Shown: piece after piece, positions 4,869-38,081 of the stretch | How the letters are laid out: each line of letters starts with the position of its first letter | Numbering within the stretch: position 1 is the first letter of the stretch | Virus record (IMG/VR): IMGVR_UViG_3300010049_000009 | Span: 1 to 64,000 of that record | Source: a virus | Lineage: Duplodnaviria > Heunggongvirae > Uroviricota > Caudoviricetes | DNA length: 64,000 nt | Direction: 5' to 3' (one strand) | Notes under the pieces: generated by a model | Told to the model about the DNA's origin: nothing | What the model saw: only the letters and a program-made list of their open reading frames with translations | Databases searched by the model: none | Translations under genes and position numbers: made by a program

Positions 4869-4871
4869 CTA

Positions 4872-5165: not shown

Positions 5166-5260
5166 GACGATTAATTGTTTAATATAAATAGAACTATTTG
5201 TGAAATCGAAACTGAAATAGTATCTTTCCATTAAATAAAACTCTTAAAATAATAGGTGTT

Positions 5261-5452
5261 ATGGATGATATTCAAATAGTAGTCAAATTTCAAAGGAACA
5301 AGGGTGTTTACGTTAATTTTGAGAGCGTGAACAAGAAGAAAGTAGATTGGGATAGTATAACTGACGAACAGTATATTAATATGATGGAAGTTGCTATCAC
5401 AACAATTGCTGATTGGCGTGAGAAATATATAGCAATACCGGAAGTAGCATGA
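5261..5452 (+). CDS. hypothetical small protein
   Basis: ORF. Confidence 0.35.
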   Translation: MDDIQIVVKFQRNKGVYVNFESVNKKKVDWDSITDEQYINMMEVAITTIADWREKYIAIPEVA

Positions 5453-5631
5453 CAATGGATGTTGAAACCTTTGAAGGTATGGCGCGTGATAGTTTGGTGG
5501 AGTTTAAAAATCGTTGGTTGAACGCTGTTAAATTTAACGATACTATTTATCCAATAGAATTACCGAGTTTTCCCGATTGGTTAGATATTTTCAAACATTG
5601 GTGCGAAACAGACGAAATATGTCTTACATAG
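5449..5631 (+). CDS. hypothetical small protein
   Basis: ORF ending at TAG 5629-5631, directly before the tRNA. Confidence 0.35.
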   Translation: MTMDVETFEGMARDSLVEFKNRWLNAVKFNDTIYPIELPSFPDWLDIFKHWCETDEICLT

Positions 5632-5706
5632 AGCGGTGTATTTCAATGGTTAGAATGACGGTCTCCAAAACCGTAGATGGGAGTTCGAGTCTCTCCACCG
5701 CTGCCA
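5632..5706 (+). tRNA. trnW: tRNA-Trp (anticodon CCA), with encoded 3' CCA
   Basis: acceptor stem AGCGGTG/CACCGCT, anticodon stem ACGGT/ACCGT, loop CTCCAAA, T-arm GGGAG-TTCGAGT-CTCTC, all folded by eye. Confidence 0.8.
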
Positions 5707-5748
5707 AGTGGGTTTAACACCCCCTGTTATTCATATTTTTTAAGAAAA

Positions 5749-5783
5749 AACCCCACTCAATATGAATGGGGTTTTGTTTTTTC
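5749..5783 (+). terminator. rho-independent terminator after tRNA-Trp
   Basis: CCCCACTCA...TGAATGGGG stem followed by TTTTGTTTTTT. Confidence 0.65.
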
Positions 5784-5836
5784 TCATAATTAACCCAAGG
5801 TGAAAAAAAAATAAATAAGAAGTTTTTTGACAAACT

Positions 5837-6976
5837 TTATTTTTTGGGTTGTAATAGTTGTTTTGTTTTGTTACGTAAATCTTTTTGAATTGACGATTCG
5901 TTTATCGTGCTTCCACCGACCGCTTTTCTTGTGTCATATTCCCACAAATTTTTCATTCTTTCCAAATCTTTTCTTGCTTTTACAACATTCTTGTATTCAA
6001 GAACAAGTGCTTGTTTGTTAATATCACACTCTATTAGATATTCGTTACCGGCGTTGTCAATCATAACAAATTTGTTGCCGGGTGTTTTGTATTGTTCAGC
6101 TATCAACGATTTAGCGTGATTTTCATTAATGAAAGTGAGTTTCTTGAAGATAAGACGTTTGGTTTTATTTTCAGACACTTCCTTTTTATCTTCCTTTTCT
6201 TCGGTAGTAACAGCATCAACCACTTTTTTACCTGCTTCATCTCCTGCCGAAGCAGCAGCAGATGTTGCCATTTGTTTTGCCATAGGTGCAGCGGCTCTTG
6301 CGCCGGCAGCAACTAATGGTGCAACTTCTGTAAGCATTTCAGCACCTTGTCTCACCATTTTATCTTCTTTAACAACTTGTTTGAATTTTGAAACCGCCAA
6401 AGAATATTTTTTACCTGACTCATCTATAAAATTGATACGCGTTTTGTCTTCGTTCAATCCTGTAACTTTTAAGTTCAGATTGTCTTTTACGAAAATATCA
6501 CCAACTTTGACTTTACCTTCGGTTGCAAATTGTGGTTTGGATTTAGGTGGGTGAGCAATCCTATCTTTTATTTGTGTTGCACCCGATATTTCAGCATACT
6601 TTTTATTGTCCGCTGCCATTTTATCGAAAAACTTCTCATTTCCCTTTGCGTCAACGCCAGCCGCTGTAACATCAATATCCGCCTGTTCAGGGGATGCTTT
6701 ACCTTGAACCAATGCTTTTACCCTTTCTTGATATTTTTTATCAATTCGGTCATAGTTCAAATTCAATGCGTTTCTACCTGACGGTGGTTGTTCACCTCTA
6801 TAACCGTCTATCTGTGTAGAACTTTTTGTGGGCGTTGAATCGTCAATGCGTTCTTCGGCATCCTTTTCAACATTTTTACTCTCTTTCTCATTTTCAGAAC
6901 GAATATCAGTAAAAAGTTTTTCTTCCACAGCCTCATTAACCAAGGCTTTCAAATCTGCTAAACTAATTGTAGCCAT
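5837..6976 (-). CDS. Lys/Glu-rich protein with a C-terminal ~50-aa GLNEDKTR domain and an Ala/Gly-rich segment (possible virion internal or scaffold protein)
   Basis: the track start 7039 is a TTG; ATG at 6976 (MATISLADLK); the domain is shared with the 23575-23982 product. Confidence 0.5.
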   Translation of the reverse strand: MATISLADLKALVNEAVEEKLFTDIRSENEKESKNVEKDAEERIDDSTPTKSSTQIDGYRGEQPPSGRNALNLNYDRIDKKYQERVKALVQGKASPEQADIDVTAAGVDAKGNEKFFDKMAADNKKYAEISGATQIKDRIAHPPKSKPQFATEGKVKVGDIFVKDNLNLKVTGLNEDKTRINFIDESGKKYSLAVSKFKQVVKEDKMVRQGAEMLTEVAPLVAAGARAAAPMAKQMATSAAASAGDEAGKKVVDAVTTEEKEDKKEVSENKTKRLIFKKLTFINENHAKSLIAEQYKTPGNKFVMIDNAGNEYLIECDINKQALVLEYKNVVKARKDLERMKNLWEYDTRKAVGGSTINESSIQKDLRNKTKQLLQPKK

Positions 6977-7044
6977 ACTCTTATTTTTTTTTAGTGATAA
7001 TTTATTATAAATAGCAGTGTTTTCAAATAATAACTGCAAACCAA

Positions 7045-7081
7045 TAAAAAAGGACTCACTAATAAGTGAATCCTTTGTTTT
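7045..7081. terminator. bidirectional hairpin terminator (AAAGGACTCAC...GTGAATCCTTT flanked by A-run and T-run)
   Basis: stem-loop with A-run on one side and T-run on the other. Confidence 0.5.
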
Positions 7082-7096
7082 CGCATTGTTCCGGGA

Positions 7097-7384
7097 TTAT
7101 CCTTCGTCTTCTTCCTCTTCTTCGTAATCGAGATATGAGTCGAAAATGATTTCGTCGCTAAGGATTTCAGGCTTACCGCAAGAAATAACCACTACTTCTT
7201 TTTCTGTTGTGCCGCAATGGTTAGTTAAACTAAACGTTACAGGAAATTCACCATATTCAGTAGGATTACCGAATAATTCACCTGTTGCTTCGTCTAATTG
7301 TACGCCAGCTGGTAATACACCACTAACAAGTTTCCACTCACCAGGGGAGCCTCTAAACAATATTTGTTCTCTTTGTTCTTCCAT
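7097..7384 (-). CDS. putative Ig-like domain (He_PIG-type) protein, 95 aa
   Basis: GEWKLVSGVLPAGVQLDEATGELFGNPTEYGEFPVTF matches the 'putative Ig domain' signature; paralogue of the 22263-22952 product. Confidence 0.5.
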   Translation of the reverse strand: MEEQREQILFRGSPGEWKLVSGVLPAGVQLDEATGELFGNPTEYGEFPVTFSLTNHCGTTEKEVVVISCGKPEILSDEIIFDSYLDYEEEEEDEG

Positions 7385-7594
7385 GACTGTAATTTATTAT
7401 AAGATTATTATTATATTATTTTTTACAATAATAAATAGTGGAAAAAAAACAATTAATTATTGGTGGTGGTAAAATTCGGAAAGATTTTTTCTTCATGTTG
7501 TTTGTCATTAAAAAACGTTGTTTGTCAAAATATATCTAAAAAACTATTTTATGTAAATATTTATACTCGGTAATAATAAATAAATTTAAACAAA

Positions 7595-11907: not shown

Positions 11908-12627
11908 ATGAATAATATTCAACAACAATTACTAAAAGAGGTTAAGCGTGGTCAATCAGGTTACGGATTTCTATTTGAGAATGACGGATTTGTTGATCCT
12001 ACTAACCAAAAACATATGTTAAATGAAGACAGAGATAGAAGTGAATGGTATATACCATTTCCTTATATTATCCACGCCGTCTTTCAAAAAGCGGATACCC
12101 CAAACGCCAACGGTAGAATATACCCAAGACCAATATTAGAAAGAGAACTTATAAAATATCAACTAAAAATCAGTGAAAGAAGGGCTTATGGTGAAAGTGA
12201 CCACCCCGAATCAACCATTATATCCACAAAGGGTATTTCAATGAACATTATTAAATTATGGTGGGAAGGAAAAACTATTGTGGGTGATTTGGAAGTACCA
12301 CTATCACATGGATTTGTGAAGAATGGTATTTGTAGCACTCCGGGAGATATTATTGCGAATAATATTTATTATAATAGGTTGAAACTTGGTGTTTCTTCGA
12401 GAGGTGTGGGTTCCGTGGAAGCAGGAAAAAACAATATTAATGTTGTTGGAGACGATTTTGAACTTTTGTGTTGGGATTGGGTGACTGACCCTTCAACACC
12501 GGGTGCTTGGACAGCAAAAGATATGAGTGATTTGAAACCTTATATTGAAAACACAGAAATCAAAACTTGTGAAAAGAAAATATTCATCATTGAAAAAGTT
12601 GATAAAGTATTACAAATTATAAAATAA
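11908..12627 (+). CDS. T4 gp21-like prohead core protease
   Basis: GRIYPRPILERE, YGESDHPE, LWWEGKTIVGDLEV, LGVSSRGVGSV and AWTAKDMS align with recalled T4 gp21 segments (KRLYPKRILEKA, GELNHPP, MWWKGNDVYGRARV, GVSSRGLGSL, AWVTPKE). Confidence 0.6.
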   Translation: MNNIQQQLLKEVKRGQSGYGFLFENDGFVDPTNQKHMLNEDRDRSEWYIPFPYIIHAVFQKADTPNANGRIYPRPILERELIKYQLKISERRAYGESDHPESTIISTKGISMNIIKLWWEGKTIVGDLEVPLSHGFVKNGICSTPGDIIANNIYYNRLKLGVSSRGVGSVEAGKNNINVVGDDFELLCWDWVTDPSTPGAWTAKDMSDLKPYIENTEIKTCEKKIFIIEKVDKVLQIIK

Positions 12628-13796: not shown

Positions 13797-14630
13797 TTAC
13801 CTCCCCACTTGTGGTAAATTAATCAAAGGTACACCGGAACCACCACTATACATAGGGAGTTTTCCATCCCACTTTTCGATAGCGTATTGTTGAACGAGTA
13901 ACATATTAAGTGATGCTGCAACAACCCTGTTGTAGTATGCTTCGCCGTCACCCTTAATTTTCAAGGCTTCCGCTTCACCACGCGCTTTAGTTACTTCGAT
14001 TTCCGCTTGTGCTCTTGCACGAGCGACCTCATTTTCCGCCCTCATCGCTTCCTGTACCATTCGGTTTCTTGAATCAATCGCCTCTACCAAACTTGCCGGT
14101 GGTGCAATCGCAGCCGTAAATTCAACAACCTGAAAACCTTGACTACCTAACGATTGTTCGAGCATTTCTCGGACTTGTGCCTCAAACTCACCACGCTTCG
14201 CCATTAATTCATCGGATGTGAAGAGGTTCCCAACAGTTCGATAAGCGTCAAACACACAGGTTAGAATAAATCCTTGTTCGATTTCCTTTATGGGTCTACG
14301 ATATGTTAAAAACACATCAATCGCCTTATCGGGATTCAAACGGTACGCCAAGTTTGGTGTGATACGGAAAATTGCCGCATCCTTCGCATTAACGGTGATT
14401 TCACCATACGAAACTCGTTGTACGTACACCGGATACTGATGTACACTCTGTGTAAAGGGGTTAAACCACACAAAACCACGTACAGTTCCCATTACACCAC
14501 CTTGTTTCTCTTCCGAAACACTCCACTTGTGGAATTTAATACCAACCGAGGTCGAATCGACCGTGGTACAACTTTGGGCGAACATCATAATCGCCACTAA
14601 ACTCAAAATCCAAAAACTTCCTTTCTTCAT
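13797..14630 (-). CDS. SPFH/band-7 (stomatin/HflK/C-like) lipoprotein
   Basis: lipobox MFAQSC; SPFH core with a coiled-coil EAMRAENEVARARAQAEIEVTKARGEAEALKIKGDGEAYYNRV. Confidence 0.7.
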   Translation of the reverse strand: MKKGSFWILSLVAIMMFAQSCTTVDSTSVGIKFHKWSVSEEKQGGVMGTVRGFVWFNPFTQSVHQYPVYVQRVSYGEITVNAKDAAIFRITPNLAYRLNPDKAIDVFLTYRRPIKEIEQGFILTCVFDAYRTVGNLFTSDELMAKRGEFEAQVREMLEQSLGSQGFQVVEFTAAIAPPASLVEAIDSRNRMVQEAMRAENEVARARAQAEIEVTKARGEAEALKIKGDGEAYYNRVVAASLNMLLVQQYAIEKWDGKLPMYSGGSGVPLINLPQVGR

Positions 14631-14694: not shown

Positions 14695-15693
14695 TTACTT
14701 AAAAACGTTACGATTTTCCCTAAAGAATTTCAATAACGTGGTTTCAGACCAACTAACCCTTTCGTCTGAACGAGAGGTTGGGGCAAACTTTTGTTCTATC
14801 GCGTCAATATACATTGTGTGAGAAAAATCATCACCTTGATAATTTTCTTCCCAATATTTCGGCGGAATCTTGTTTTCCATATCCAACTGCTCAATAGAGA
14901 GGTTGTCGAAACTGATAACATTGGTGTAAGATACAATTTTAATAATATTCCGATCCCATTCCACAATATTATTCTTAATATCCTCTGAATAAGATTTATA
15001 GTAATCTAATCCTCTACCAAACTCTTTATAACCAAGCAATAGAAACTTTCGTAATCCGAAGCGGTCTCTTAACTGTGTTATAATTTCCGGTGTGTGTAGA
15101 CCTATAATAAGGTGCGCAACTGTGTGTTCATACTTCAAAAAATACTCTTCGTCTGCTGAACACTTATCAATACCTTCTATTGGAATTGATACACCTAACC
15201 CATAAATCAATTTTTCTTCCATATAACGTTTCAATTCAACCGCATTACTTCCATGTAAGTGGTGAAAATTAACCGTCAAACTAGGGAATATCTTTTTTGT
15301 TTGACAGAATTGAAGAAGTAGTGGGAGGTCGGGATGTGATAATGGATTACCGCCGCCGACTGCCATTTCCTGTCCACCTGGTAACACATCCAAAACTTCT
15401 ATCAACGCATTTATATCAGCGTGTTTTCCGTGAAAATGTGATTTTTCATGACAAAAAGCACAGGGTTTAAAATCACCCATACCATATTTAGATGGTATGC
15501 CCACACATTGGTTTGTGATTTTTATATCCATACTGTTCGGATAGTCAAACACAACAGGTTTGGTTTCGTCAAACTCCATTATTCGTGTACCATCTTCAAA
15601 AAGTTGGACTTTTACATTACCGTTTTGGTAGTTTATTATTTCTTTCATTGTGTTTTTTAAATTAACAATCATTTCCGAATTTTCCAAAAGCAA
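14695..15693 (-). CDS. radical-SAM-like protein with a non-canonical CX14CX2C cluster motif
   Basis: C-VGIPSKYGMGDFKP-C-AF-C (exactly 14 and 2 spacing) followed by a GGGNPL glycine-rich motif. Confidence 0.4.
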   Translation of the reverse strand: MLLENSEMIVNLKNTMKEIINYQNGNVKVQLFEDGTRIMEFDETKPVVFDYPNSMDIKITNQCVGIPSKYGMGDFKPCAFCHEKSHFHGKHADINALIEVLDVLPGGQEMAVGGGNPLSHPDLPLLLQFCQTKKIFPSLTVNFHHLHGSNAVELKRYMEEKLIYGLGVSIPIEGIDKCSADEEYFLKYEHTVAHLIIGLHTPEIITQLRDRFGLRKFLLLGYKEFGRGLDYYKSYSEDIKNNIVEWDRNIIKIVSYTNVISFDNLSIEQLDMENKIPPKYWEENYQGDDFSHTMYIDAIEQKFAPTSRSDERVSWSETTLLKFFRENRNVFK

Positions 15694-18240: not shown

Positions 18241-18621
18241 ATGGTACATACAATTATAATCGGTGTTTGGATGACATTGTTATTTATAACATTGTCTGTT
18301 GTTTTCGTATATATGTTTAAGAAACCAAAACATAATATAAACGAGGTTTTTGAACAAATATTTAAGAAACAAGTTGATTTGTTAAAAAAAATTGACGAAG
18401 AAAACACAATGCAAGTAGAGGTGTTTGATAAACTTAACCATAATATTGTAGAGAATTATCGCATACTATTGCAAATACAAATAAAAGAATCTATTAAACA
18501 CAACCCCTTTGAAACAGAACATATTCTAAAATTATATAACGATTACATTGGTATTGCCAAATATCCGAACACAGTTTTAGATGATGCGGTTAATGAGTGG
18601 AGAAACCTATACGGTTATTAA
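18241..18621 (+). CDS. small membrane protein
   Basis: N-terminal TM. Confidence 0.45.
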   Translation: MVHTIIIGVWMTLLFITLSVVFVYMFKKPKHNINEVFEQIFKKQVDLLKKIDEENTMQVEVFDKLNHNIVENYRILLQIQIKESIKHNPFETEHILKLYNDYIGIAKYPNTVLDDAVNEWRNLYGY

Positions 18622-19217
18622 CAAATAAATTCCACCATACCACTATCCAAATAGAGATATGCGCCAACAATTTTTATATCACCATTTTTTTCCTTTTCAC
18701 GTAAAAAACGATATTCCCGAATTGTATTTACAGATTGTTGAACATTTGTTCGACACACCAAATCAAAGAAACCAGGATTAGACGATACGGTTTCACCACC
18801 ATAAATAATATCCGCACTTGCTCGTACCGCCGGTAGTATTGGGCGAAGTTTTCCTAACAAACCCCAATCCTTTTCCTCTGTATCAATAACACGTTTGACA
18901 GCAGCACAATTATCATGTCCCAAAACCATTACCAAATTCACGGAAGGAAAACTACAAGCAAATACCAAATCAAATAAAATTTCATTGGTAATAACATTCC
19001 CCGATGTGCGAATTGTAATAACATCACCCGCACCCAATTTAAAAATATCTTCAACCACAATACGAGAATCTATACAAGTTACTATCACCGCTTTCGGTGT
19101 TTGTTCCTTAATACTATGGGGTTTGTCGTTAACATATTCTTTGTTACGACATTTTAAAACTTCAAGTGTCGGGTGAGGCACTTCTTCTTTCTTTTTGAAT
19201 TTAAAAAAATCTTCCAT
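18618..19217 (-). CDS. beta-class carbonic anhydrase
   Basis: CIDSRIV...GDVITIRTSGNVI...VLGHDNCAAV matches the beta-CA CxDSR / HxxC zinc-ligand signatures. Confidence 0.7.
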   Translation of the reverse strand: MEDFFKFKKKEEVPHPTLEVLKCRNKEYVNDKPHSIKEQTPKAVIVTCIDSRIVVEDIFKLGAGDVITIRTSGNVITNEILFDLVFACSFPSVNLVMVLGHDNCAAVKRVIDTEEKDWGLLGKLRPILPAVRASADIIYGGETVSSNPGFFDLVCRTNVQQSVNTIREYRFLREKEKNGDIKIVGAYLYLDSGMVEFIC

Positions 19218-20193: not shown

Positions 20194-20958
20194 ATGAGTA
20201 TTCAAGAAGAAGAAATAAAGAAATTGAAGGAGGAAAATGAGTTGTTGAAAAAGCGTTTGGATAACGCAAACAAACTCAAATCAACCTTTCTTGCTAATAT
20301 GAGCCACGAAATTAGAACACCGTTAAACGCTATTGTGGGGTTTTCTAATTTTTTAACCGAATGTGAAGAATTAACCGAAAGTGAGCGCAACGAATTTATT
20401 AACATTATTCAACAAAATAATGATTACTTATTGAAAATCATTGACGATATTTTAGAACTCTCTAAAATTGAAAGAGATCAAGTCTTTATTAATAATGTTA
20501 AACTGAAACTAAATCAGTTTTTAGGTGGATTGATTAATGAGAATAAGAAAAAAATTAACCCCAATAGGAAAGTCGAATTAATATTAGACGATGTGGATTT
20601 TATTGAAAATTGTCTTATTGAAGTTGATGCCATAAAATTAGAGCAGATACTTAATAATCTTATTGATAATGCTATTAGATTCACATTGAGTGGATATGTG
20701 TTAGTTGGGTATAAACAAATACCGGGTTTCATTGAATTTTATGTTGAAGATAGTGGAGTTGGAATACCCAAAGAAAAATTAGAACACGTTTTTAATAGTT
20801 TTTACCAAATCAATAGTGCTATATGTCCCGATTCGGGAATGGGCGTTGGGTTATTTATTTCAAAAAACTATGTTAAAAGAATGGGTGGTGTTATGGGTGT
20901 AAGTTCAGTCGAAGGTGAAGGTAGTAGATTTCATTTTACCATACCATATCTTGTATAA
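20194..20958 (+). CDS. cytoplasmic sensor histidine kinase (HisKA + HATPase_c), no TM and no sensor domain
   Basis: H-box FLANMSHEIRTPLNAI; N box NNLIDNAIRFT; G1 VEDSGVGIP; F box FNSFYQ; G2 GMGVGLFISK; N-terminal coiled coil. Confidence 0.8.
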   Translation: MSIQEEEIKKLKEENELLKKRLDNANKLKSTFLANMSHEIRTPLNAIVGFSNFLTECEELTESERNEFINIIQQNNDYLLKIIDDILELSKIERDQVFINNVKLKLNQFLGGLINENKKKINPNRKVELILDDVDFIENCLIEVDAIKLEQILNNLIDNAIRFTLSGYVLVGYKQIPGFIEFYVEDSGVGIPKEKLEHVFNSFYQINSAICPDSGMGVGLFISKNYVKRMGGVMGVSSVEGEGSRFHFTIPYLV

Positions 20959-23029: not shown

Positions 23030-23374
23030 TTAGGATTTTTCTAACATTTCGATTGCAGCACCGATATTGGGTGTGATATTTAATATAGTATCAAGTTGTG
23101 ATATAAAAATCAGGCGTTCCACCGCTTCGTTCAATCCACTGAGGATAAATTTACCACCGGCGTTTTTACACAACCTGTGGGCAACAAGAATTGCACCTAA
23201 GCCGGAAGAGTCACAGTATTTGCACATTTCCAAGTTCAAAATAATGTTCTTCTCACCATTCCCTGATATTAAGACTAATTCGGATTTGAGTGTTGGTGCA
23301 ATATGTGTGTCTAATTTTTGTTGTTGTACACTGATAACGGTGTGTGTAACGTTTTGGTCAATTTTTAAGTTCAT
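23030..23374 (-). CDS. STAS-domain anti-sigma-factor antagonist (SpoIIAA/RsbV-like)
   Basis: DSSGLG phospho-serine motif and overall STAS pattern. Confidence 0.7.
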   Translation of the reverse strand: MNLKIDQNVTHTVISVQQQKLDTHIAPTLKSELVLISGNGEKNIILNLEMCKYCDSSGLGAILVAHRLCKNAGGKFILSGLNEAVERLIFISQLDTILNITPNIGAAIEMLEKS

Positions 23375-23546
23375 TGCAATAAAATTTTTATAATAAATAC
23401 TTATTTCTTTCTATAAATATACATGTTTTTCAAAAATAAACCCCTACAAATTTTATATGTAAGGGTTTAATGGAAAAATATAATGAACTACATTAGGACA
23501 AGAATGTAGGTAAGTCAAATATACTATTTTCGTTTTACATATTAAC

Positions 23547-24029: not shown

Positions 24030-25730
24030 ATGTACAAAAATAATTATGCAACCATAGAAGAGAGTATAGGTAGGATGCAGAAACTTATGGGCAACACCGC
24101 GCCGGTGGTTCGCACGGAACAAGTGCTTGGAAACATTGAAAAGGTGTATAGGGGTCATGATAATAATGCTTATGCTATTGTAAAAGAAAATTCACACTAC
24201 TATTTAAAAGTATCAGGAAAAACATCAGATTTGTCTTTGAACGATTTTGAATATTTGGGTGGAAACAGACAATGTAAAAATCTGTATGAATATAGTTCCT
24301 TTGCCAATGCAGAGAAGTTCCTTAAAGAACATTTAATTACCTTGAACCAACAGGTTAACAACCAAGAATTACTTAAAGAAGAAGCAAAACGTGTTGATAC
24401 CAACCTTGAAAAAACCGCTACTTCAACAGCAATGCGCAGTGAAATAGACCGTATTCGTGAGATTATGGAAAACACCAATAGAATTAATAAAGGTGGTAGT
24501 GCAAGTGTTGTTAAGAAATCTCTAAACGAAAAAGTAAATATCGCTAACGAAGAGAGTGGTATGATTACCGATAGTGTGAACGAAGAACCCGTAAACGAAA
24601 TTATTAGCAATGCTATTAAAAATGTTGCTAGTGGAATTGGTAATATGGGTGCCGGTGTTATTCACGGTCAAACAACAGAAGGAAGCGAAGAACCTGTGAA
24701 TGAATTTGTCAGTAACGCCATAAAAAACGTTGCTAGTGGAATTGGTAATATGGGTGCCGGTGTTATTCACGGTCAAACAACAGAAGGAAGCGAAGACGAC
24801 GAACTTGAACTCGAATTAGACGGTGATGACGAATTTGATTTAGACGACGAATTTGACAGCGAAGAAGAAAATGAATTTGAAGAAGATTTGGAAGACGAAT
24901 TTGACGGTGAAGAAGACGAAGAAATGTCAATGCTAAATGCTTTAATGGATAAGTTGAATAGTATTGAAGAAAAATTAGACGGTGCTGACAGCGAAGAAGG
25001 TGAATTTGAAATAGATTTAGACGACGATAGCGAAGGTGAATTTGATTTAGACGAATGTGGTGTAGTTGGTGAAGGTGACGATATTGAAGAAGCGTTTCTA
25101 TCTGACAAACTCAACGCAAAATATGGTACATTACCAAAACAAGCCGATGAAGCAAAAGCAAATTTTGAAAGAGTTATCACATCTTGGTTGGAAAGAGACC
25201 GACCTGGTATGAGTCCAACAGAATTAGCAAACGCACTTAAAGCAAAAATAGACGAAATAGTTGCCGAAGAAGAATCAGACGATATTGATAACCCACTGTT
25301 TGATGACCCCGATGACAGAATGACGGGTACTATGGGTGAAGCCAATATGAAAAGAATGGTTCAAAAAATTATTAAAGAAACTATTAGTACAATCGCTTCT
25401 GATGTAACAAAAGATAATTTTGGATATACTAACGCCGAACCGGATAGTAAAGGTAGAACGAGTTTTGATAACCCAAAAGCCGAAAAAGAAATTGGTTTAG
25501 GTAATCACCACGAAGATACACTTGATCAAATTAAATCAACAACAGGAAATCATTCTAAACCTTCAACAGGTAGTACACCAGCAGGTAAAGTTGCTAACGT
25601 TATTGACGATATAGAAGTTGAAATCGTTGATTGTTGTGAGTCAAAAAACAAAAAACCTCTCTACATTGTAGAACAAGACGGAACAGTTATTGGTAAAATT
25701 GCACGTGAAACGTTGAAGAAGCGTAAATAA
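24030..25730 (+). CDS. acidic protein (566 aa) with a 35-aa tandem duplication, possible scaffold or internal virion protein
   Basis: EPVNE(II/FV)SNAIKNVASGIGNMGAGVIHGQTTEGSE x2, then a D/E-rich block. Confidence 0.55.
   Translation: MYKNNYATIEESIGRMQKLMGNTAPVVRTEQVLGNIEKVYRGHDNNAYAIVKENSHYYLKVSGKTSDLSLNDFEYLGGNRQCKNLYEYSSFANAEKFLKEHLITLNQQVNNQELLKEEAKRVDTNLEKTATSTAMRSEIDRIREIMENTNRINKGGSASVVKKSLNEKVNIANEESGMITDSVNEEPVNEIISNAIKNVASGIGNMGAGVIHGQTTEGSEEPVNEFVSNAIKNVASGIGNMGAGVIHGQTTEGSEDDELELELDGDDEFDLDDEFDSEEENEFEEDLEDEFDGEEDEEMSMLNALMDKLNSIEEKLDGADSEEGEFEIDLDDDSEGEFDLDECGVVGEGDDIEEAFLSDKLNAKYGTLPKQADEAKANFERVITSWLERDRPGMSPTELANALKAKIDEIVAEEESDDIDNPLFDDPDDRMTGTMGEANMKRMVQKIIKETISTIASDVTKDNFGYTNAEPDSKGRTSFDNPKAEKEIGLGNHHEDTLDQIKSTTGNHSKPSTGSTPAGKVANVIDDIEVEIVDCCESKNKKPLYIVEQDGTVIGKIARETLKKRK
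24582..24791 (+). repeat. 2 x 105-bp in-frame tandem duplication inside the CDS
   Basis: near-identical DNA copies starting at 24582 and 24687. Confidence 0.8.
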
Positions 25731-26178: not shown

Positions 26179-26389
26179 AATAGGAATGGAAGAAGAGGTT
26201 TTGTGTAAGATTAATCAACTTATTATGGAGAAAACCGGTAAAAGCATTGAGGATTTAGAATATGCGCCATTACCGGAAGAGGATCATAGATACAACACAC
26301 AGCGTTTTGGTAGAGCGGAAGATATTCTAACACCAAGACAAGCAAATGAAAAAATACAAAAATTTCTATCATTAAAATTTTAAAAAGAA

Positions 26390-26421
26390 AAATCCCATTC
26401 AAACTCGAATGGGATTTTTTA
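26390..26421. terminator. bidirectional rho-independent terminator (AAATCCCATTC...GAATGGGATTTTTTATTT)
   Basis: between convergent genes. Confidence 0.65.
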
Positions 26422-26525: not shown

Positions 26526-28442
26526 TTAATTAACTTCTTCCGCTTCCTGTGGTCCACCGGCGGTTGCTTTACTGAAATCAAAATCACCAAATGGGTTGTC
26601 CGCACCCATATTAGCAAACGGATTGCTTGGGTTTCCACCACCAGGGTTATTTGCCGCATACAATCTTGTTGAAATCGGTATCCACACCTCATCCATTTTC
26701 TTTGCTAACTCATCCACCTTTTCGTGGTTTTCGGTTTTAATAACTTCCTTCAATTCGTCAATCACCGTTTGGATTTTTATTTTTTCCTCATCGGTAATTT
26801 TATCACCCATTTCGTCAATTTGTTTTTCGGTTGAGAAAATTATGGAGTCCGCCTTATTCATAGCTAAAACCTTTTCCATTTTTTTCTTATCCGCTTCGGC
26901 GTTATCTTCTGCTTCACGTTTCATTCTTTCAACCTCTTCTGACGATAATCCTGATGAAGATTGAATGGTGATATGTTGTTCTTTGTTTGTCCCTTTATCA
27001 GTTGCTTTAACAGACATAATACCGTTGGCATCAATACTAAATGTTACCTCTATTTGTGGTGTACCGCGCCTTGCCGGTGGAATACCATCTAAATCAAATT
27101 GACCTAATAGTTTATTATCATTGAAAGAGGGGCGTTCACCTTGGGCTACGCGAATGGTTACTGCCGGTTGGTTATCAACTGCTGTGCTGAAAATTTGTGA
27201 TTTTGAAACAGGGATTGTTGTGTTCGCATCAATAAGTTTTGTGAACACACTACCCATAGTTTCGATACCTAATGAAAGTGGTGTGACATCTAAAAGTAGA
27301 ACGTCTTGTGTTTCACCACTTAACACAGACCCTTGAACTGCTGCTCCAAGGGCAACAACTTGGTCGGGATGTACACTTTTGTTTGGTTTTCTCCCAAAAA
27401 ACTTCTCAACAGCCTCTTGTACAGCGGGAATACGAGTACTACCACCAACAAGAATTACTTCGTCAATATCACTTGTGGTTATACCTGCGCTTTTCAATGC
27501 TGATTTACAAGGTTCGATTGTGCGTTTAACGATAGTTTCTATCATTTGTTCAAATTTCGCACGTGTAATCGTTTGCACGAGGTGTTTTGGTACACCGTCA
27601 ACCGGCATAATGTATGGAAGATTTATTTCTGTTTGAACTGAACTTGACAACTCAATTTTCGCCTTCTCAGCGGCTTCTTTCAGGCGTTGTAATGCCATTG
27701 GGTCTTTTTTCAAATCAATGGCGTATTCCTTATTAAATTCGTCAGCAAGATAATTTATAATGACATGGTCAATATCATCACCCCCCAACCTTGTATCGCC
27801 GTCAGTGGATTTGACTTCAAACACACCACCACCGAGTTCAAGTATTGATATATCGAATGTACCCCCACCGAAGTCAAATACAGCAATTTTCATATCGTCT
27901 TTCTTATCTAAACCAAAAGCCAATGCTGCTGCCGTAGGTTCATTAATTATACGAGCGACTTCTAATCCGGCTATTTCACCCGCTTCTTTGGTTGCTTGAC
28001 GCTGTGAATCGGAAAAATAAGCCGGTACAGTGATAACTGCTTTAACCACCTCTGTTCCAAGAAAATCTTCCGCTGTTTTCCGCATTTTTTGCAGGATTAT
28101 TGCTGAAATTTCTTGTGGGGAATATTCTTTATTTTCAATTTTAACACGAATAGTGTCATTAGTACCACTTACAAGTTCGTATGCAACTTTATCCTTTTCG
28201 TTGTTGATTGAACTATATTTTTCACCCATAAAACGCTTTATGGAATAAACCGTTTTTGTTGGATTAGTTACCGATTGGCGTTTCGCGGAATCTCCCACAA
28301 CACGCTCACCGTCTTTTATAAAACCAACAATTGAGGGGGTGGTGTCCTTCCCCTCACCGTTTGGAATAACCATTGGCTTACCACCTTCTACTACTGAAAC
28401 ACAAGAGTTACTTGTGCCTAAATCTATACCTATTATTTTCAT
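26526..28442 (-). CDS. dnaK: Hsp70 chaperone DnaK
   Basis: [19 protein letters not shown]..., DLGGGTFD, full-length 638 aa with an acidic C-terminus. Confidence 0.9.
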
Positions 28443-28459: not shown

Positions 28460-28927
28460 TCAATTTATATCAATTTTTCTAATTGTGGGTTGTTCGGTAG
28501 AACTCCACATTTTATCTATAACAATCTCCAAAATACCATCCACAATATGTGAAGTAGTAGTATCTAAATCACAATCTTTTGGAATGGTAAATGTTTCTTT
28601 ACCGGGTTTTGTGTTGAAATGAAAACCATTATCACGTGGTTTATACTCCACAGTTAGAGTATAATCTTGTAATGTGATTTCAATATCATTTTTTGATAAT
28701 CCTGGAACCAACAATTCAATCGAATGAGTGTGTGCATCACTCTCGATATGACAGTTTGATCTACCTATACCGTATGATACAGTATAACTTGGTGGCGCAA
28801 TTATGTCTTGCGCACGTGGGAGAATACCCCACCATGGGCTTGTATCCTCACTTGGTAAAAAATCACCCACATGAAATCTATATGGATAATTACCTGTACC
28901 TGTTCTTATGTTACAACAACTTTTCAT
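28460..28927 (-). CDS. small heat-shock protein (Hsp20/alpha-crystallin-like)
   Basis: alpha-crystallin-like core IELLVPGLSKNDIEITLQDYTLTVEYKPRD...FTIPKDCDLD...DGILEIVIDK. Confidence 0.5.
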   Translation of the reverse strand: MKSCCNIRTGTGNYPYRFHVGDFLPSEDTSPWWGILPRAQDIIAPPSYTVSYGIGRSNCHIESDAHTHSIELLVPGLSKNDIEITLQDYTLTVEYKPRDNGFHFNTKPGKETFTIPKDCDLDTTTSHIVDGILEIVIDKMWSSTEQPTIRKIDIN

Positions 28928-28993
28928 ATTATATAATTATTATTATTATTTATTTTTACATTTACCACTATTCAAAGAGTGTGCCAAAGGATT

Positions 28994-29044
28994 TTTGTCA
29001 CAAAAAAAGATGTTTTTTGTGACAAAATATGACAGATTGTCATA
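28994..29044. promoter_or_regulatory. two adjacent palindromes, TTTGTCACAAAAAA-N5-TTTTTTGTGACAAA (14-bp arms) and TATGACA-GAT-TGTCATA, upstream of the sHsp-DnaK operon and overlapping the infA stop
   Basis: perfect inverted repeats sharing a TGTCA half-site. Confidence 0.45.
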
Positions 29045-29291
29045 CTTGTCCTTCATCTACTGACACCTTTGCAGTATTGAACCGGCGTGAAATACGACCT
29101 CTTGTCAGATCGTATGGCGACATTTCTATTTCGACTTTATCACCAACTAAAATTTTAACGTAGTTTTTGCGTATTTTACCTGATATTACACACAGCACCA
29201 TGTGTTCGTTTTCCAACTCAACGCGAAAGGTGGCGTTACCCAACGCTTCTGTAACTATACCTGTTTGGATTATAAGATTCTTTTTACCCAT
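29040..29291 (-). CDS. infA: translation initiation factor IF-1 homologue
   Basis: [57 protein letters not shown] is roughly 60% identical to the recalled E. coli IF-1 ([57 protein letters not shown]). Confidence 0.85.
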
Positions 29292-29652
29292 TTTCTTTTT
29301 TTATAAATTGTTTTAAATATTTCATTTCGATATGTTTCTTAATAATATCCCCATGACATGACTTCGGCGCACAAAAACAACCAAGACATATGTTTTCACC
29401 ACGTATATACATATCATATATTTCGTCTATTTTCTCTCTAAATGTGGGGTTATTTTCATAGTTTTCAAGAAAATATTCTTGGTATTTTGCAATTGCGGTT
29501 TCTCTATCTGATACCGTGTATTGCGCTAACGTTCCTGTTTTGGTACTATATGGATTACCCAATATGTTATTTTCTCTGTTTCTACCTATGTAGAAATACA
29601 CACCATCGTTTGGGGTGTGTTTATTAATGTTTATTACTTCTATACTTCCCAC
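29284..29652 (-). CDS. hypothetical protein ([14 protein letters not shown] motif)
   Basis: ORF. Confidence 0.45.
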
Positions 29653-29881: not shown

Positions 29882-30889
29882 TTACAAGTATGTTGCTGTT
29901 TGAAGTAGTTTAATTACACCATCAATACCTCTTTCTCTATACAGGTCGGAAACGTCTTTACATTTCTCCGGCAGCGTTAATTTAGACCAATCTACTATGC
30001 GTATCCGCCCACACAATCTACCTACGTTCAACGTTTCATAAATCTTTATCCAATCCTCATACGCTTTTTCTTCATAGTCGGGTATTAACAAAACACTGTT
30101 TGCTCTTTCCAACAATACGTTGAATAATCGGAAGTCGGAGTTTAATTTCTTTCCTAATATTGGAATAGCATTTGAAGGTAATGGAATAGCGTCTAAAACA
30201 CCTTCGACTAATCTAACTTCACCGTCAAATTGTGTTTTATTGTATCCCCATATTATTTCACGTTTATCGTGATCTGATGGTAGAACAAATTTTGTTTGAT
30301 ATTTGTTTTCCTTATACAGACGACCAACAAAATAATCTATGCTACCGAATGACCAATTAGTAAAGATTATTCGATTACGAATACTTTTTGTGTATTTACA
30401 ACCGGTTGTGCATTTGTTACAAACATTTGTTGTGCAATGTATGTTATTTTTTTCGATTTCATAATCAACCAAACCACGATCAATCAAATAATTGTATGCG
30501 TCTTTATGTTCGGGTCGAAGTTTGTTTAATGGAACACAGCACTTGGGTAGTTTAAAGATGGGTTTTTCAAAACACTCTTCGTCAAAATGTAATAGGTACA
30601 AACGACTTTCCCTGATATTCTTAATCTCATCGAAATATTCTTTGTATATTCGTTCATTGCCGAATTGTTTGATTAAATAGGATAATCTACCTGATTGTTC
30701 GGGGCAACACCAAGAGTTGTATATACCTTTGGGAAAATTTACTTCCAAATTACCTTTACCCACACCCCCACAGTAGGGACAATCGTACTGCGACTGTCCA
30801 TTTTCACTAACACCACGTTTAGTGCTACCTAAAAAGGATTCAAATATTCTTTCTAATTTGTTGTACATCAATCCATTTTTTGTGAACAC
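29882..30889 (-). CDS. T4 gp61-like DNA primase (zinc ribbon + TOPRIM)
   Basis: YDCPYCGG zinc ribbon; VRLVEGVLDAIP (TOPRIM EGxxD); LLIPDYEE; IVDWSKLTLPEKCKDVSDLYRERG collinear with recalled T4 gp61 (VYVLEGPIDSLF; FWDKSPWKSKDVNDMIRKEG). Confidence 0.6.
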   Translation of the reverse strand: MFTKNGLMYNKLERIFESFLGSTKRGVSENGQSQYDCPYCGGVGKGNLEVNFPKGIYNSWCCPEQSGRLSYLIKQFGNERIYKEYFDEIKNIRESRLYLLHFDEECFEKPIFKLPKCCVPLNKLRPEHKDAYNYLIDRGLVDYEIEKNNIHCTTNVCNKCTTGCKYTKSIRNRIIFTNWSFGSIDYFVGRLYKENKYQTKFVLPSDHDKREIIWGYNKTQFDGEVRLVEGVLDAIPLPSNAIPILGKKLNSDFRLFNVLLERANSVLLIPDYEEKAYEDWIKIYETLNVGRLCGRIRIVDWSKLTLPEKCKDVSDLYRERGIDGVIKLLQTATYL

Positions 30890-34933: not shown

Positions 34934-34986
34934 ATCATTTTTTCTATAAATATACAGTATTTTAAAATAACATTGAATTATATGTG

Positions 34987-35067
34987 AGCGGATAGTGGGA
35001 CTCGAACCCACACGCCTTTCGGCACTAGTTCCTAAGACTAGCGCGTATACCATTCCGCCATATCCGC
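34987..35067 (-). tRNA. tRNA-Leu (anticodon TAG), type II with long variable arm
   Basis: acceptor GCGGATA/TATCCGC; anticodon stem CTAGT/ACTAG, loop CTTAGGA; folded by eye. Confidence 0.7.
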
Positions 35068-35133
35068 ATATTATCACAAATATTTGCACTGTTATCATAG
35101 GTATTGATAATAGTGCAATTTTATTTGATAATG

Positions 35134-35206
35134 TATGAGTGGAGGGATTCGAACCCCCGATTTCGTGGTCCCAAACCACGCGCCATACCAACTTGACCAC
35201 ACCCAT
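35134..35206 (-). tRNA. tRNA-Pro (anticodon TGG), with an A1-U72 pair
   Basis: anticodon stem CGTGG/CCACG, loop TTTGGGA; T-arm GGGGG-TTCGAAT-CCCTC. Confidence 0.65.
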
Positions 35207-35213
35207 GTTGTTG

Positions 35214-35285
35214 ATGTTCCACCAGGACTTGAACCTGGACAAACAGATTCAAAATCTGTTGTGCTAACCATTACACAATGGAACA
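35214..35285 (-). tRNA. tRNA-Gln (anticodon TTG)
   Basis: acceptor TGTTCCA/TGGAACA (U1-A72 typical of Gln); anticodon stem ACAGA/TCTGT, loop TTTTGAA. Confidence 0.7.
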
Positions 35286-35291
35286 ATGTAG

Positions 35292-35364
35292 CTGGGATAG
35301 TAGGTCACGATCCTACGACCTGCGGATTAACAGTCCGATGCTCTACCAACTGAGCTATATCCCA
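35292..35364 (-). tRNA. tRNA-Asn (anticodon GTT)
   Basis: acceptor TGGGATA/TATCCCA; D-arm GCTC-AGTTGGTA-GAGC; anticodon loop CTGTTAA. Confidence 0.7.
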
Positions 35365-35370
35365 ATTTTG

Positions 35371-35443
35371 CGGTCGATGTGGGATTCGAACCCCTCCTCT
35401 ACCGTGACAGGGTAACGTGCTAACCATTACACTACACCGACCA
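35371..35443 (-). tRNA. tRNA-Asp (anticodon GTC); the T-stem pairs poorly
   Basis: anticodon stem TTACC/GGTAG, loop CTGTCAC (classic Asp loop); acceptor GGTCGGT/ATCGACC; only a 3-bp T-stem found by eye. Confidence 0.55.
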
Positions 35444-35448
35444 TTTTG

Positions 35449-35524
35449 GGTGAGAGAGGAGAATCGAACCCCCGACCTTCTGATCCACAATCAGACGCTC
35501 TAACCTACCTGAGCTACCCTCACC
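35449..35524 (-). tRNA. tRNA-His (anticodon GTG) with encoded G-1 opposite C73 (bacterial type)
   Basis: 5' G-GTGAGGG; anticodon stem TCTGA/TCAGA, loop TTGTGGA. Confidence 0.7.
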
Positions 35525-35532
35525 ATATATTG

Positions 35533-35605
35533 TAGTCGGTACGGGACTCGAACCCGTTTCTCCACCTTGAAAGGGTGGTGTCCTGACCAATTAGACGAAC
35601 CGACC
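35533..35605 (-). tRNA. tRNA-Glu (anticodon TTC)
   Basis: near-identical to the recalled E. coli tRNA-Glu core (TTCGTCTA..GGACACCACCCTTTCAAGGTGG); T-arm ACGGG-TTCGAGT-CCCGT. Confidence 0.7.
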
Positions 35606-35614
35606 ATATTTTTG

Positions 35615-35699
35615 TGGAAAGGGTAGGATTCGAACCTACGAAAGTCCGAAGACAGCGGAGTTACAGTCCGCCCCAATTGACCAACTATGGGACCTTTCC
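35615..35699 (-). tRNA. tRNA-Tyr (anticodon GTA), type II (bacterial style)
   Basis: acceptor GGAAAGG/CCTTTCC; anticodon stem GCGGA/TCCGC, loop CTGTAAC; long variable arm. Confidence 0.7.
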
Positions 35700-35745
35700 A
35701 AACATTTTATCCAAAATAATATTCACATATTATTCCGATCTTATG

Positions 35746-35818
<73 letters not shown>

Positions 35819-36101: not shown

Positions 36102-38081
36102 TTAATTAACCAAAATTTTTTCACTATTTTCTAAATATTCATCAATTCGTACTATTAAACGTTCAAATTCTTCATTTATTACAGGAGAACCTGTTAAAGT
36201 TGGTTTATTTTGTACTACAATATTTTCTGTGATAATTTTTTCTTTGTTATGTTTTTTATTTTCCATTGGTGCTGCTTCTGCTGCCCCAGCCTCTGCGCCA
36301 CCCACATCGGGTGCACCACCTTCGGCAGGTGCTTCGCCACCACCTTCTTCTGCGCCGCCGCCCATATCATCCATACCCATATCGCCACCTGGTGCACCTC
36401 CACCGCCGCCACCGGCAGCCGCTTCTGCTTGTCCTATTTCAGTAGCACCATAATTATATTCTGCATTTGCTTCACCATATAATGTATCAACTCTATCAAA
36501 AAGACCTGTTTTCTTAATAATTTGTTGTGTTAATACTAATTCGGTTGCCAATGCTTTTTCAAGTCGAAGGTCTTCCAATATCTGATTAATTTCGCTTTCA
36601 GGGAATTTCATAATTTCCCTTAACGCTTTTCTCCACGAATATACTGCTAATCCACCACCCGGATCTGAAAGAGCATCTTTACAAACAAGAATCTTCTTCT
36701 GCATTTCTTCAATACGTTGAATTTCTGCTTGTGTTGAAGGATTGTTCATTGTTATTGTAAAGTTATTCAGTTCGTCTGTAAAACCTAACAAATAAAGATG
36801 TATGATAGCAATTTTATTTAGTTCAAGAATAACACATTGTTGAATACGTGTAATTATTTTGGCAAATCTTACGTCAGTCATTGATAGTGTTCTACCTTCG
36901 GCTGGTGATGCTTCAAAATTTAAAAATACCTTTGGAATACCCAAGGCGGTGAGCATTTGCAAATGAAGATATTCTAAAATATCTTTAAATTTTTCAAATG
37001 CTGAACTACCACTTAACGCCTCGATTTTACTTGCGTCATTGTTACCTCTAACCGGGATAAAATAATCGTCTAAGGGTGACATTACGTTTTTAGATAAGTC
37101 AATATGACCTGTTTGTGGGTCAATTCGGGAAGTTCTTTTAAATCTGTTTGCTATTTCTTGTACGTATGGTTCAATGTCAGCATCGTCAATTAATCCAACG
37201 TCTATTTTGTATATTAATCTATCGTATGCTCTCTCCATCATATGTATTAACATATGATCTTCCGCCATCATTAATCTTCGCCATTGTTGTCTTGCACCAT
37301 TAATATATGAACAACCATAGGGGGCGGCAATCATATCATTCATTAGTCTGAAATGTCCCACTTGCCAACTATGAAATGTTTGTGGTGCACCTGCGCCAAT
37401 ATATTGAAAATGTGGTTGAAGTTGTGATACGTCATTGTTGGATACACTACCAGCGTTTTGTGGCATAACACCGTAGGGGTGTAAACTTTGAAATCTTCTC
37501 ATTTCGACCACAGGTACGGAGTGCCACGCCAATATACCGTTTTTAGATTGAATGTTTAACAGTTTATATTCGTTACCATATTTTACCATAGTACGGACTA
37601 GGGGTAATAGTTCCAAATGTATTTGAAGTCTATTAACGAAAAGGTCTTCTAAAATAAACTTAATTCTATCTGATTTTGAGGTGATATTAATTAGTGAACC
37701 GTCAGGTCCTAAAGTACATGTTTCTGATGCTACCAAATTTAAAGCCTGATATATTTCAGGTCTTTGGCACATATTTTCAATATCACGATACATTAAGTCA
37801 ACATAACCCATTGACTGTAAATCACGCATATTAGTACGTGCTTGGGTATGTATCCACGTTGAACTTAACCATTTGTCTTGTTTACCTTGAAGTAGTGCCG
37901 CATCATATTCCGCTTTATTCTTTGTTTTAAGAATAATATCGTTATTGTAATCATAGGTGCTCGGGTGAGATGACTGAACAGTGGTGTTGTACTGCCCTTT
38001 ATCCCACCCTGTTAAAGTTTTTATCAGTGCGCTATATATACTTATAGGTTTTTCTTGTTTCTTATCCATTATCGAATACAT
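36102..38081 (-). CDS. candidate portal (T4 gp20-like) or other large head protein, with a Gly/acidic C-terminal tail
   Basis: 659 aa, no NTP-binding motif, located beside putative head/scaffold genes; the family could not be verified by eye. Confidence 0.3.
   Translation of the reverse strand: MYSIMDKKQEKPISIYSALIKTLTGWDKGQYNTTVQSSHPSTYDYNNDIILKTKNKAEYDAALLQGKQDKWLSSTWIHTQARTNMRDLQSMGYVDLMYRDIENMCQRPEIYQALNLVASETCTLGPDGSLINITSKSDRIKFILEDLFVNRLQIHLELLPLVRTMVKYGNEYKLLNIQSKNGILAWHSVPVVEMRRFQSLHPYGVMPQNAGSVSNNDVSQLQPHFQYIGAGAPQTFHSWQVGHFRLMNDMIAAPYGCSYINGARQQWRRLMMAEDHMLIHMMERAYDRLIYKIDVGLIDDADIEPYVQEIANRFKRTSRIDPQTGHIDLSKNVMSPLDDYFIPVRGNNDASKIEALSGSSAFEKFKDILEYLHLQMLTALGIPKVFLNFEASPAEGRTLSMTDVRFAKIITRIQQCVILELNKIAIIHLYLLGFTDELNNFTITMNNPSTQAEIQRIEEMQKKILVCKDALSDPGGGLAVYSWRKALREIMKFPESEINQILEDLRLEKALATELVLTQQIIKKTGLFDRVDTLYGEANAEYNYGATEIGQAEAAAGGGGGGAPGGDMGMDDMGGGAEEGGGEAPAEGGAPDVGGAEAGAAEAAPMENKKHNKEKIITENIVVQNKPTLTGSPVINEEFERLIVRIDEYLENSEKILVN

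Follow-up and report, generated by a model that had tools for sequence, protein, structure and literature searches.

Initiation factor 1 (IF-1) genes have been described in several huge phages. Al-Shayeb et al. (2020) reported both IF1 and IF3 in the translation gene set of huge phages and proposed that they redirect host translation (PMC7162821), which provides a precedent for the present case. Soil huge phages also carry IF1 (PMC11748809), and in the Jug gut phages, whose genomes measure 360-402 kb, "translation initiation factor 1A" is one of 39 single-copy genes that are conserved, and eIF-1a ranks with the most frequent Pfam domains (PMC12880540). We analyzed an IF-1 gene in a 64,000-nucleotide stretch of a Caudoviricetes genome (positions 1 to 64,000 of IMG/VR record IMGVR_UViG_3300010049_000009; this whole stretch is hereafter called the window). 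A preliminary description of the sequence stated that IF-1 is not usual phage cargo, which is correct for ordinary phages but overstated for huge phages: a pattern scan of IMG/VR yielded 384 viral contigs with an IF-1 relative, and 21 of the best 80 exceed 200 kb. Using tblastn, IF-1 was detected in Lak megaphages, Bacteroides phages DAC/SJC03, the LR7565xx huge phages and the cultured 469-kb Sinorhizobium phage Phosso, in which the gene is annotated as IF-1. Phage-encoded IF-1 is already known in huge phages; what appears new is a virus-only subgroup of tail-bearing IF-1s and the conserved pairing of IF-1 with a small heat-shock protein (sHsp).

The product of the window gene was confirmed to be a bona fide bacterial-type IF-1. 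It matched the NCBIfam infA equivalog TIGR00008 at 100.9 bits (cutoff 61.15; E 2.7e-29) near end to end, with residues 3-70 on positions 1-68 of the 69-position model, and the 83-aa open reading frame (ORF) scored 81.7 bits with Pfam PF01176 (eIF-1a; cutoff 30.2). PHROG 30201, which is labeled "unknown function", represents the same family (86.4 bits). In a PDB sequence search, bacterial IF-1s accounted for 12 of the 12 top hits, including 6c00 as the best (E 1.4e-23) and E. coli 1ah9 (E 1.9e-20). The similarity proposed in the preliminary description was therefore recovered by family models and structure-database sequences alike, as were the collinearity with bacterial IF-1 and the short C-terminal extension, which reaches 11-12 residues beyond the usual end (cellular IF-1s have 72 aa). 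Its estimate of about 60% identity to E. coli IF-1 was fair but slightly generous, as we measured 55-56% over 70-71 aligned columns. Three other identities were rejected. For aIF1A/eIF1A, the scores were 18.7 vs 102.9 bits for TIGR00523 and 21.8 vs 202 for NF003086, and the AlphaFold2 model of the window protein has no helical subdomain. RsgA/YjeQ, in which a circularly permuted GTPase domain and then a zinc finger come after the OB domain, was matched marginally through PF16745 (27.9 vs 27 bits, residues 11-57); NF008932 gave 18.8 vs 483, and the 83-aa protein has no GTPase domain. CspA-type identity, defined by a cold-shock domain match with RNP1/RNP2 motifs, was rejected as no such domain family was found in the Pfam and NCBIfam matches at E <= 0.01.

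The AlphaFold2 model had a mean predicted local distance difference test score (pLDDT) of 83.9, with 10-residue block means of 91-94 across residues 11-70. The modeled strands (7-18, 21-26, 31-36, 52-57 and 64-71) form a five-stranded OB barrel, with a short helix (38-42) between strands 3 and 4. In Foldseek, the model was superimposed on 4ql5_A with a template modeling score, TM(target), of 0.97 and a root-mean-square deviation of 0.7 A, and on 30S-bound E. coli IF1 (9fco_I) with a TM of 0.96 and 56% identity. Across IF-1 structures, TM was 0.93-0.97 for crystal and cryo-EM chains and 0.77-0.90 for most NMR models, with 52-61% identity over structure-aligned columns. The contacts of IF-1 with the 530 loop, A1492/A1493 and S12 are made by K39, M42, R41, R46, H35, Y60, R64 and R66, and R70 is functionally critical in E. 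coli (PMC10913371). Compared with this list, window IF-1 is identical at K39, R41, Y60, R64, R66 and R70; K occupies position 42 in both the window and the E. coli protein, and K in place of R46 is a conservative change. In our alignment A1, I36, S37, G38, R41, G65, R66, I67 and R70 were invariant and K39 was conserved in at least 90%. Judged from the aligned sequences, most 30S-contact residues are retained in window IF-1. Because the OB barrel and these residues are kept, the simplest reading is that the basic face of the barrel would seat in the 30S A site (h44/530 loop/S12).

The same fold admits another role. E. coli IF1 acts as an RNA chaperone and as a transcription antiterminator, and a csp double knock-out is complemented by it (PMC3017892). 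Phage IF-1 may mainly serve as a free RNA chaperone or antiterminator, similar to cold-shock proteins, and form a "chaperone cassette" with sHsp and DnaK; IF-1 is repeatedly linked to protein-chaperone genes rather than translation genes, and a Clp-family ATPase is encoded near IF-1 in Phosso. However, the residues retained are precisely the ones in contact with h44, the 530 loop and S12, and the match is to the infA equivalog, with no CspA-type family in the Pfam and NCBIfam matches. In addition, both activities reside in one E. coli protein, so that RNA chaperoning would be an addition to rather than an alternative to initiation. We regard this explanation as unlikely.

The tail was a shared property of the closest relatives. 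The closest homologues of window IF-1 are metagenomic proteins of 80-85 aa that also extend beyond the normal C-terminus, with 66-73% identity in the full A1 alignment and 68-76% in local BLASTP. In eight of eight members of this subgroup, the tail continues for about 8-14 residues past a shared RR/KR, whereas cellular IF-1s end at about residue 72. All eight tails are basic in the first half and acidic in the second, and their sequence is poorly conserved. Compared with Bacteroidota IF-1, the subgroup has fixed L33-C34, K-I-R-K-N at 39-43 (vs K-M-R-M-N/H) and V49-G-D (vs P-G-D). The eight tail-bearing IF-1s formed a cell-free group as an exact bipartition in 58 of 100 neighbor-joining (NJ) bootstraps, and at least 93 of 100 replicates placed each member with window IF-1 in a clade free of cellular sequences. 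The phylogeny suggested in the preliminary description yielded a cell-free tail-bearing subgroup.

We assessed whether the gene belongs to the phage. The window encodes a T4-type portal and prohead protease (Table 1), and its proteins also gave virion-protein PHROG matches. It carries 10 tRNAs, which are further translation-related cargo of the phage, and the nine-gene array lies about 280 nt from the portal gene; an Rfam scan detected tRNAs only. The identical IF-1 protein was found on contigs from at least five samples; one contig, ERZ27264051 k141_2927976, is 367,985 bp, and these contigs had the same IF-1 neighbors at 99.7-100% nucleotide identity to the window. The samples of origin are ERZ27257300, ERZ27264051, SRR10512953-55 and SRR5215206. 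The IF-1 gene is phage-borne, as the preliminary description claimed, and lies on a huge phage genome (>200 kb) of about 368 kb. Positions 26-34 kb matched none of 50,697 phage records by megablast; therefore, no close sequenced relative is present in that collection.

We considered that the gene could instead be host DNA, present through contamination or chimeric assembly or as a passenger that arrived very recently and plays no part in the phage. IF-1 is universal in bacteria, and some "phage" records with IF-1 resemble host fragments, as rpmJ is adjacent in L022/L025 and unannotated 1.4-4-kb "Listeria phage" contigs carry IF-1. The GC content of the IF-1 gene (0.393) is also slightly above the window mean (0.337), and dnaK behaves likewise. 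However, the same context was assembled independently in at least five samples, the IF-1 start overlaps a neighboring phage gene, and syntenic orthologues are present in diverged phage relatives. Bacterial infA lies in a secY-map-infA-rpmJ neighborhood, and rpmJ was within 1.5 kb in 74 of 80 cellular loci from GTDB; window IF-1 lies outside such a context. In IMG/VR viral IF-1 loci, rpmJ was adjacent in 2 of 80, and at the window locus and its relatives, rpmJ and ribosomal-protein neighbors are replaced by phage genes, sHsp and DnaK. The best cellular IF-1s (Saprospiraceae, Chitinophagales and other Bacteroidota) reach only about 58-68% identity. Because of the shared contexts, the lack of cellular neighbors and the low cellular identity, contamination, chimerism and recent capture are very unlikely. 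We give a host origin of this kind almost no credence, and the contaminant or chimera considered in the preliminary description was not borne out.

The preliminary description placed IF-1 directly upstream of an sHsp-DnaK pair, and this arrangement was found on the same strand (Table 1). In the window, the gene order is DUF4326, IF-1, Hsp20, DnaK. The P0006 phage (contigs up to 269 kb) has DUF4326, a 100-aa ORF, IF-1, Hsp20, a DUF723 gene and DnaK; the P0005 contig has DUF4326, IF-1, Hsp20, DnaK and a DUF723 gene; and the P0012 contigs have DUF4326, a 112-aa ORF, a RyR-domain ORF, IF-1 and sHsp, where the contig ends. The order DUF4326 ... IF-1, sHsp was therefore kept in all four diverged members with readable context, and DnaK followed sHsp in all three lineage contigs long enough to reach it. 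At the level of loci, DUF4326 was upstream of IF-1 in L006, L179 and L181, and sHsp was downstream in L006/L011, L179 and L181; in L011, a copy of the P0006 lineage, sHsp begins 145 nt after IF-1. Between window IF-1 and the L006 (P0006) orthologue, dN was 0.27 and dS was saturated, so that dN/dS was not computable; these values are consistent with purifying selection, although no quantification is possible. The block is vertically inherited, and small genes have moved in and out of it.

DUF723 genes occur at varying sites around hsp20/dnaK, and L176 holds two (Table 1). In L006, a DUF723 gene separates hsp20 from dnaK, whereas the window has none at this position. DUF723-domain genes are possibly mobile genes of the homing-endonuclease type. 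DUF4326 was found 0-2.5 kb upstream of IF-1 at loci of the window lineage as well as in IMG/VR contigs that are otherwise unrelated, at 35-37% identity; this recurrence may be due to chance, as DUF4326 is common in phages. Just upstream of DUF4326 and IF-1, the window encodes a 335-aa protein with CxxC motifs (DCPYCGG..., CNKCTTGC), which is 73% identical in L006 and has no Pfam or PHROG match. Judged by eye, it looks like a putative zinc-finger/Toprim primase.

A pairing of IF-1 with sHsp was also observed in a second group of huge phages. We searched for sHsp using an iterated hidden Markov model (HMM) over the ORFs of viral IF-1 loci and checked the results against Pfam. On the same strand, sHsp lies 18-35 nt downstream of IF-1 in L009/L010, L014/L015, L019, L030/L032 and L035; in L023, L028, L033 and L034, the distance downstream is 0.6-1.7 kb. 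In Pfam, 10 of 10 representatives had HSP20 as the best family, eight of them above the gathering cutoff and two just under it (19.3 and 16.4 vs 20.8). The sHsps of this group are divergent (16-31 bits) and easily overlooked in routine annotation. An earlier view that the pairing is specific to one lineage, based on tblastn with the window Hsp20 at 1e-5, which detected sHsp only in the closest relative, was overturned by the iterated HMM and Pfam. The block of the second group consists of a UvrD helicase, an AAA ATPase (PF00004), IF-1 and sHsp, with Amidase_3 on the opposite strand. This group is probably Jug-like because its block matches the Pfam domain list of Jug phages (PMC12880540); the suggested Jug-like contigs are L009/P0047, L014, L019, L023, L030 and L033-L035.

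The IF-1s of the second group are 58-72% identical to window IF-1, and only 34-63% of bootstraps place them with it in a cell-free clade. A single virus-only clade of all sHsp-linked IF-1s, seen in a midpoint-rooted NJ tree, was dropped at this bootstrap level. Because of this low value, the pairing may be either ancestral or convergent, and we do not claim common ancestry of the two groups. No sHsp was found beside infA in 80 cellular (GTDB) loci, nor beside IF-1 in Lak-A1, DAC19, MT835508, LR756511 and Phosso. Within 8 kb of the Hsp20, DnaK and DnaJ genes of the 360-kb phage L176, no IF-1 was found.

Next, we considered whether IF-1, sHsp and DnaK form one module, as the preliminary description suggested. 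The suggestion is partly supported, in that gene order is kept in four lineage members and the IF-1, sHsp pair recurs in the second group. Three observations count against it. DnaK adjoins the pair in the window lineage only. Translational coupling ties IF-1 to the DUF4326 gene in front of it, whose stop overlaps the IF-1 start. Finally, a spacer of 112 nt (28928-29039), which ends in an A/T-rich leader, separates IF-1 from hsp20; because it holds a strong stem-loop and a conserved promoter-like motif, co-transcription of IF-1 with sHsp-DnaK in the window is not established and hsp20-dnaK probably has its own promoter. In the Jug-like group, gaps of only 18-35 nt suggest that IF-1 and sHsp form a true operon.

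The spacer was examined within a run of eleven minus-strand genes separated by short gaps, from 33106 down to 26526. RNA folding of 28920-29050 on the minus strand gave a minimum free energy of -24.9 kcal/mol (z = -3.17), and none of 200 shuffles was as stable. Of the two stem-loops there, the one distal to IF-1 is a perfect 14-bp A/U-rich stem; it was not called an intrinsic terminator in the consensus scan, and no similar inverted repeats were found elsewhere in the window. Its arm, TTTGTCACAAAAA, was rejected as a repeated regulatory motif, as 17 matches with at most 2 mismatches were found against 12.6 expected. The promoter-like motif has two matches in the 64-kb window and appears, as TGGCRY-N5-YTGW, at the same spot in the IF-1/hsp20 spacer of all four lineages. 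In the form TGGCAY-N5-TTGA, it precedes hsp20 by 30-60 nt in five phage lineages, including the unrelated L176, and is also present upstream of dnaK in a bacterial genome (L177/L178; gliding-motility, Bacteroidota-type) and directly after IF-1 in one Jug-like contig (L033). Its spacing is that of the sigma-54 -24/-12 elements. Because the -12 GC is replaced by GA or GT, we made no sigma-54 assignment; the motif looks like a putative host-like chaperone-gene promoter, copied or kept by phages. A scan for the sigma-70 consensus gave 20 sites against 19.4 expected.

The host was approached through gene starts and cellular relatives. Only 1 of 51 window gene starts had a GGAG/GAGG/AGGA Shine-Dalgarno (SD) motif, compared with 2.2 expected by shuffling, and positions -20 to -1 of the leaders are mostly A. 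Bacteroidota initiate largely without SD pairing. The closest named cellular homologues of window DnaK are from Flavobacteriales/Bacteroidia (65-69% identity), and the closest cellular relatives of window IF-1 are from Saprospiraceae/Chitinophagales. Because of these affinities and the SD-less, A-rich leaders, the host is probably a member of Bacteroidota with SD-independent initiation.

We consider it probable that the gene encodes a functional bacterial-type IF-1 of a huge phage, captured long ago, inherited vertically and acting in initiation at the host 30S subunit. Its source would have been cellular, with vertical passage in the phage lineage thereafter. The protein would load onto host 30S subunits together with host IF2 and IF3 and may sustain or raise formation of 30S initiation complexes on A-rich, SD-less phage mRNAs. 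The supply of IF-1 would serve a long, protein-heavy infection, and the folding load that results would fall to the neighboring sHsp and DnaK. The disordered tail, basic and then acidic, would be an add-on to a standard IF-1. Host translation may also be affected, as the preliminary description proposed.

Several points weigh against this explanation. H35, on the S12-facing surface, is V in window IF-1, and the tail could alter interactions. OB-fold conservation alone does not fix the role, because the E. coli protein is also an RNA chaperone. Among the scanned window ORFs, no other initiation factor or ribosomal protein genes were found, the rest of the genome having been read at these loci only. 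No experimental study of any phage IF-1 was found in the searched literature, and ribosome binding by phage IF-1 is predicted from conservation only. On 71 columns, the deep IF-1 phylogeny was not resolved.

The tail and the leaders bear on two further explanations. A modified IF-1 might act as a competitor that displaces host IF-1 to favor phage start sites or mRNAs, or as an A-site decoy or shield against host defense toxins, with the tail as a new contact; the fixed differences from Bacteroidota IF-1, the basic/acidic tail and the lack of SD motifs in phage mRNAs are consistent with this. However, the differences are modest and several are also cellular (KxRKN occurs in E. coli and S. pneumoniae), the tail shows little sequence conservation and is predicted to be disordered, and neither selectivity nor a partner protein is directly supported. 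We find such a competitor quite improbable. More speculatively, IF-1 and sHsp could be a functional pair kept by Bacteroidota huge phages across deep divergence, by one ancient capture or by convergence; IF-1, possibly through its tail (loosely like the eIF1A C-terminal tail contacting eIF5B/IF2), might build phage-specialized 30S complexes for SD-less leaders, coupled to phage chaperones. We hold this idea to be a long shot as well, and initiation at the host 30S by an otherwise standard IF-1 is the explanation that we prefer.

Table 1. Coordinates of features in the window and at related loci (window positions unless a locus is named)
Feature	Position	Strand	Basis or remark
IF-1 (infA-type) coding sequence	29040-29291	-	ATG...TGA ORF, 83 aa; TGA stop 29040-29042
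S1-like OB-fold core, residues 1-71	29079-29291	-	AlphaFold2 model and Foldseek
Clade-specific C-terminal tail, residues 72-83, predicted disordered	29043-29078	-	pLDDT <50 at residues 75-83
DUF4326 gene	29284-29652	-	PF14216, 52.7 bits; stop overlaps IF-1 start by 8 nt
Hsp20/alpha-crystallin sHsp gene, 3' of IF-1	28460-28927	-	PF00011, 44.4 bits
DnaK (Hsp70) gene	26526-28442	-	NF001413, 947.5 bits; TIGR02350, 915.8 bits
Two adjacent stem-loops at/overlapping IF-1 stop	28994-29045	-	RNA fold; 29027-29045 and 14-bp stem 28994-29026
Promoter-like motif TGGCAC-N5-TTGA	28972-28986	-	about 45 nt upstream of hsp20 start
Intrinsic-terminator-like hairpin closing hsp20-dnaK unit	26388-26419	-	consensus scan: 14-bp stem, 4 GC pairs, T tract
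T4-type portal	36102-38081		Pfam PF07230, 188.9 bits
T4-type prohead protease	11908-12627		Pfam PF03420
Nine-tRNA array (Leu-TAG, Pro, Gln, Asn, Asp, His, Glu, Tyr, Thr)	34986-35818	-	
Lone tRNA-Trp	5632-5706	+	
335-aa CxxC protein	29882-30889	-	
Cellular-type cargo, listed together	20194-20958; ~23030-23375; 18618-19217; 13797-14630; 14695-15693	+; -; -; -; -	
105-bp tandem repeat	24581-24796	+	within ORF 24030-25730
Second-group block	L009 2798-7492; L014, L019, L023, L028, L030, L033, L035 around 3000-7500		
TGGCAY-N5-TTGA sites	L006 8314-8328; L179 2522-2536; L181 3267-3281; L176 2475-2489; L177 7954-7968; L033 5224-5238		
DUF723 genes	L006 8939-9961; L179 5179-6285; L181 739-1665; L176 12289-13266 and 15768-16724		
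DUF4326 upstream of IF-1	L017 2472-2714; L076/L081 2525-2779; L179 1826-2209; L181 1928-2299		
Phosso locus	L175 2874-4219		IF-1 two genes downstream of "Clp family ATPase domain" gene

The window contains other unusual cargo of cellular type, namely a HisKA/HATPase_c histidine kinase, a STAS-domain protein, a beta-carbonic anhydrase (Pro_CA) and an SPFH/Band 7 protein, as well as a weak radical-SAM-like protein. An ORF of 566 aa without a family match contains the tandem repeat, which has 2.1 copies that are 90% identical and in frame, encoding a repeated 35-residue segment.

Phage initiation factors have been catalogued and remain uncharacterized, and an effect of a viral IF-1 on the bacterial ribosome has not yet been demonstrated. 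The locus is a clean test case, as it offers a short soluble protein with an intact predicted 30S-binding face and a deletable clade-specific tail, and the conserved partner sHsp predicts co-expression or cooperation with IF-1. Many of the IF-1 phages seen infect Bacteroidota (Lak, DAC/SJC03, Jug and probably the window phage), a phylum largely without SD pairing; therefore, study of this IF-1 could reveal viral tuning of SD-independent initiation. As a discovery it is incremental: a phenomenon already known gains a lineage, a variant of the tail and a conserved pairing of genes.

Compared with cellular factors, window IF-1 has the architecture of bacterial IF-1 (E. coli 1AH9, S. pneumoniae 4QL5 and T. 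thermophilus 1HR0 on 30S), namely one S1-like OB domain some 70 residues long that is collinear throughout the core. It differs in being phage-encoded, in its 12-residue disordered tail, and in H35->V, R46->K, L33-C34 and V49. aIF1A/eIF1A have a homologous OB core and share Pfam PF01176, with a Foldseek TM(query) of 0.71-0.75; however, identity is 20-35% for most Foldseek hits, and window IF-1 has no N-terminal tail. In eIF1A, charged unstructured tails flank the OB domain, and the resemblance of the window tail to these is in charge only.

Compared with phages, the reported huge-phage IF1s are similar cargo in genomes of about 170 kb to >500 kb, many with Bacteroidota hosts. The IF-1s of Lak, DAC/SJC03 and Phosso are 50-55% identical to the window protein, which, unlike the other reported huge-phage IF1s, belongs to a separate tail-bearing subgroup. 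The window block holds DUF4326 and DnaK, whereas the second, Jug-like group holds AAA and Amidase_3. Moraphages are aquatic Bacteroidota huge phages with genes for DnaK, DnaJ and Hsp20, and their DnaK has an affinity to Flavobacteriales (PMC12619734). Window DnaK has the same affinity; however, IF-1 is not mentioned for moraphages, and their genomes reach up to 307 kb, compared with the 368-kb contig described here.

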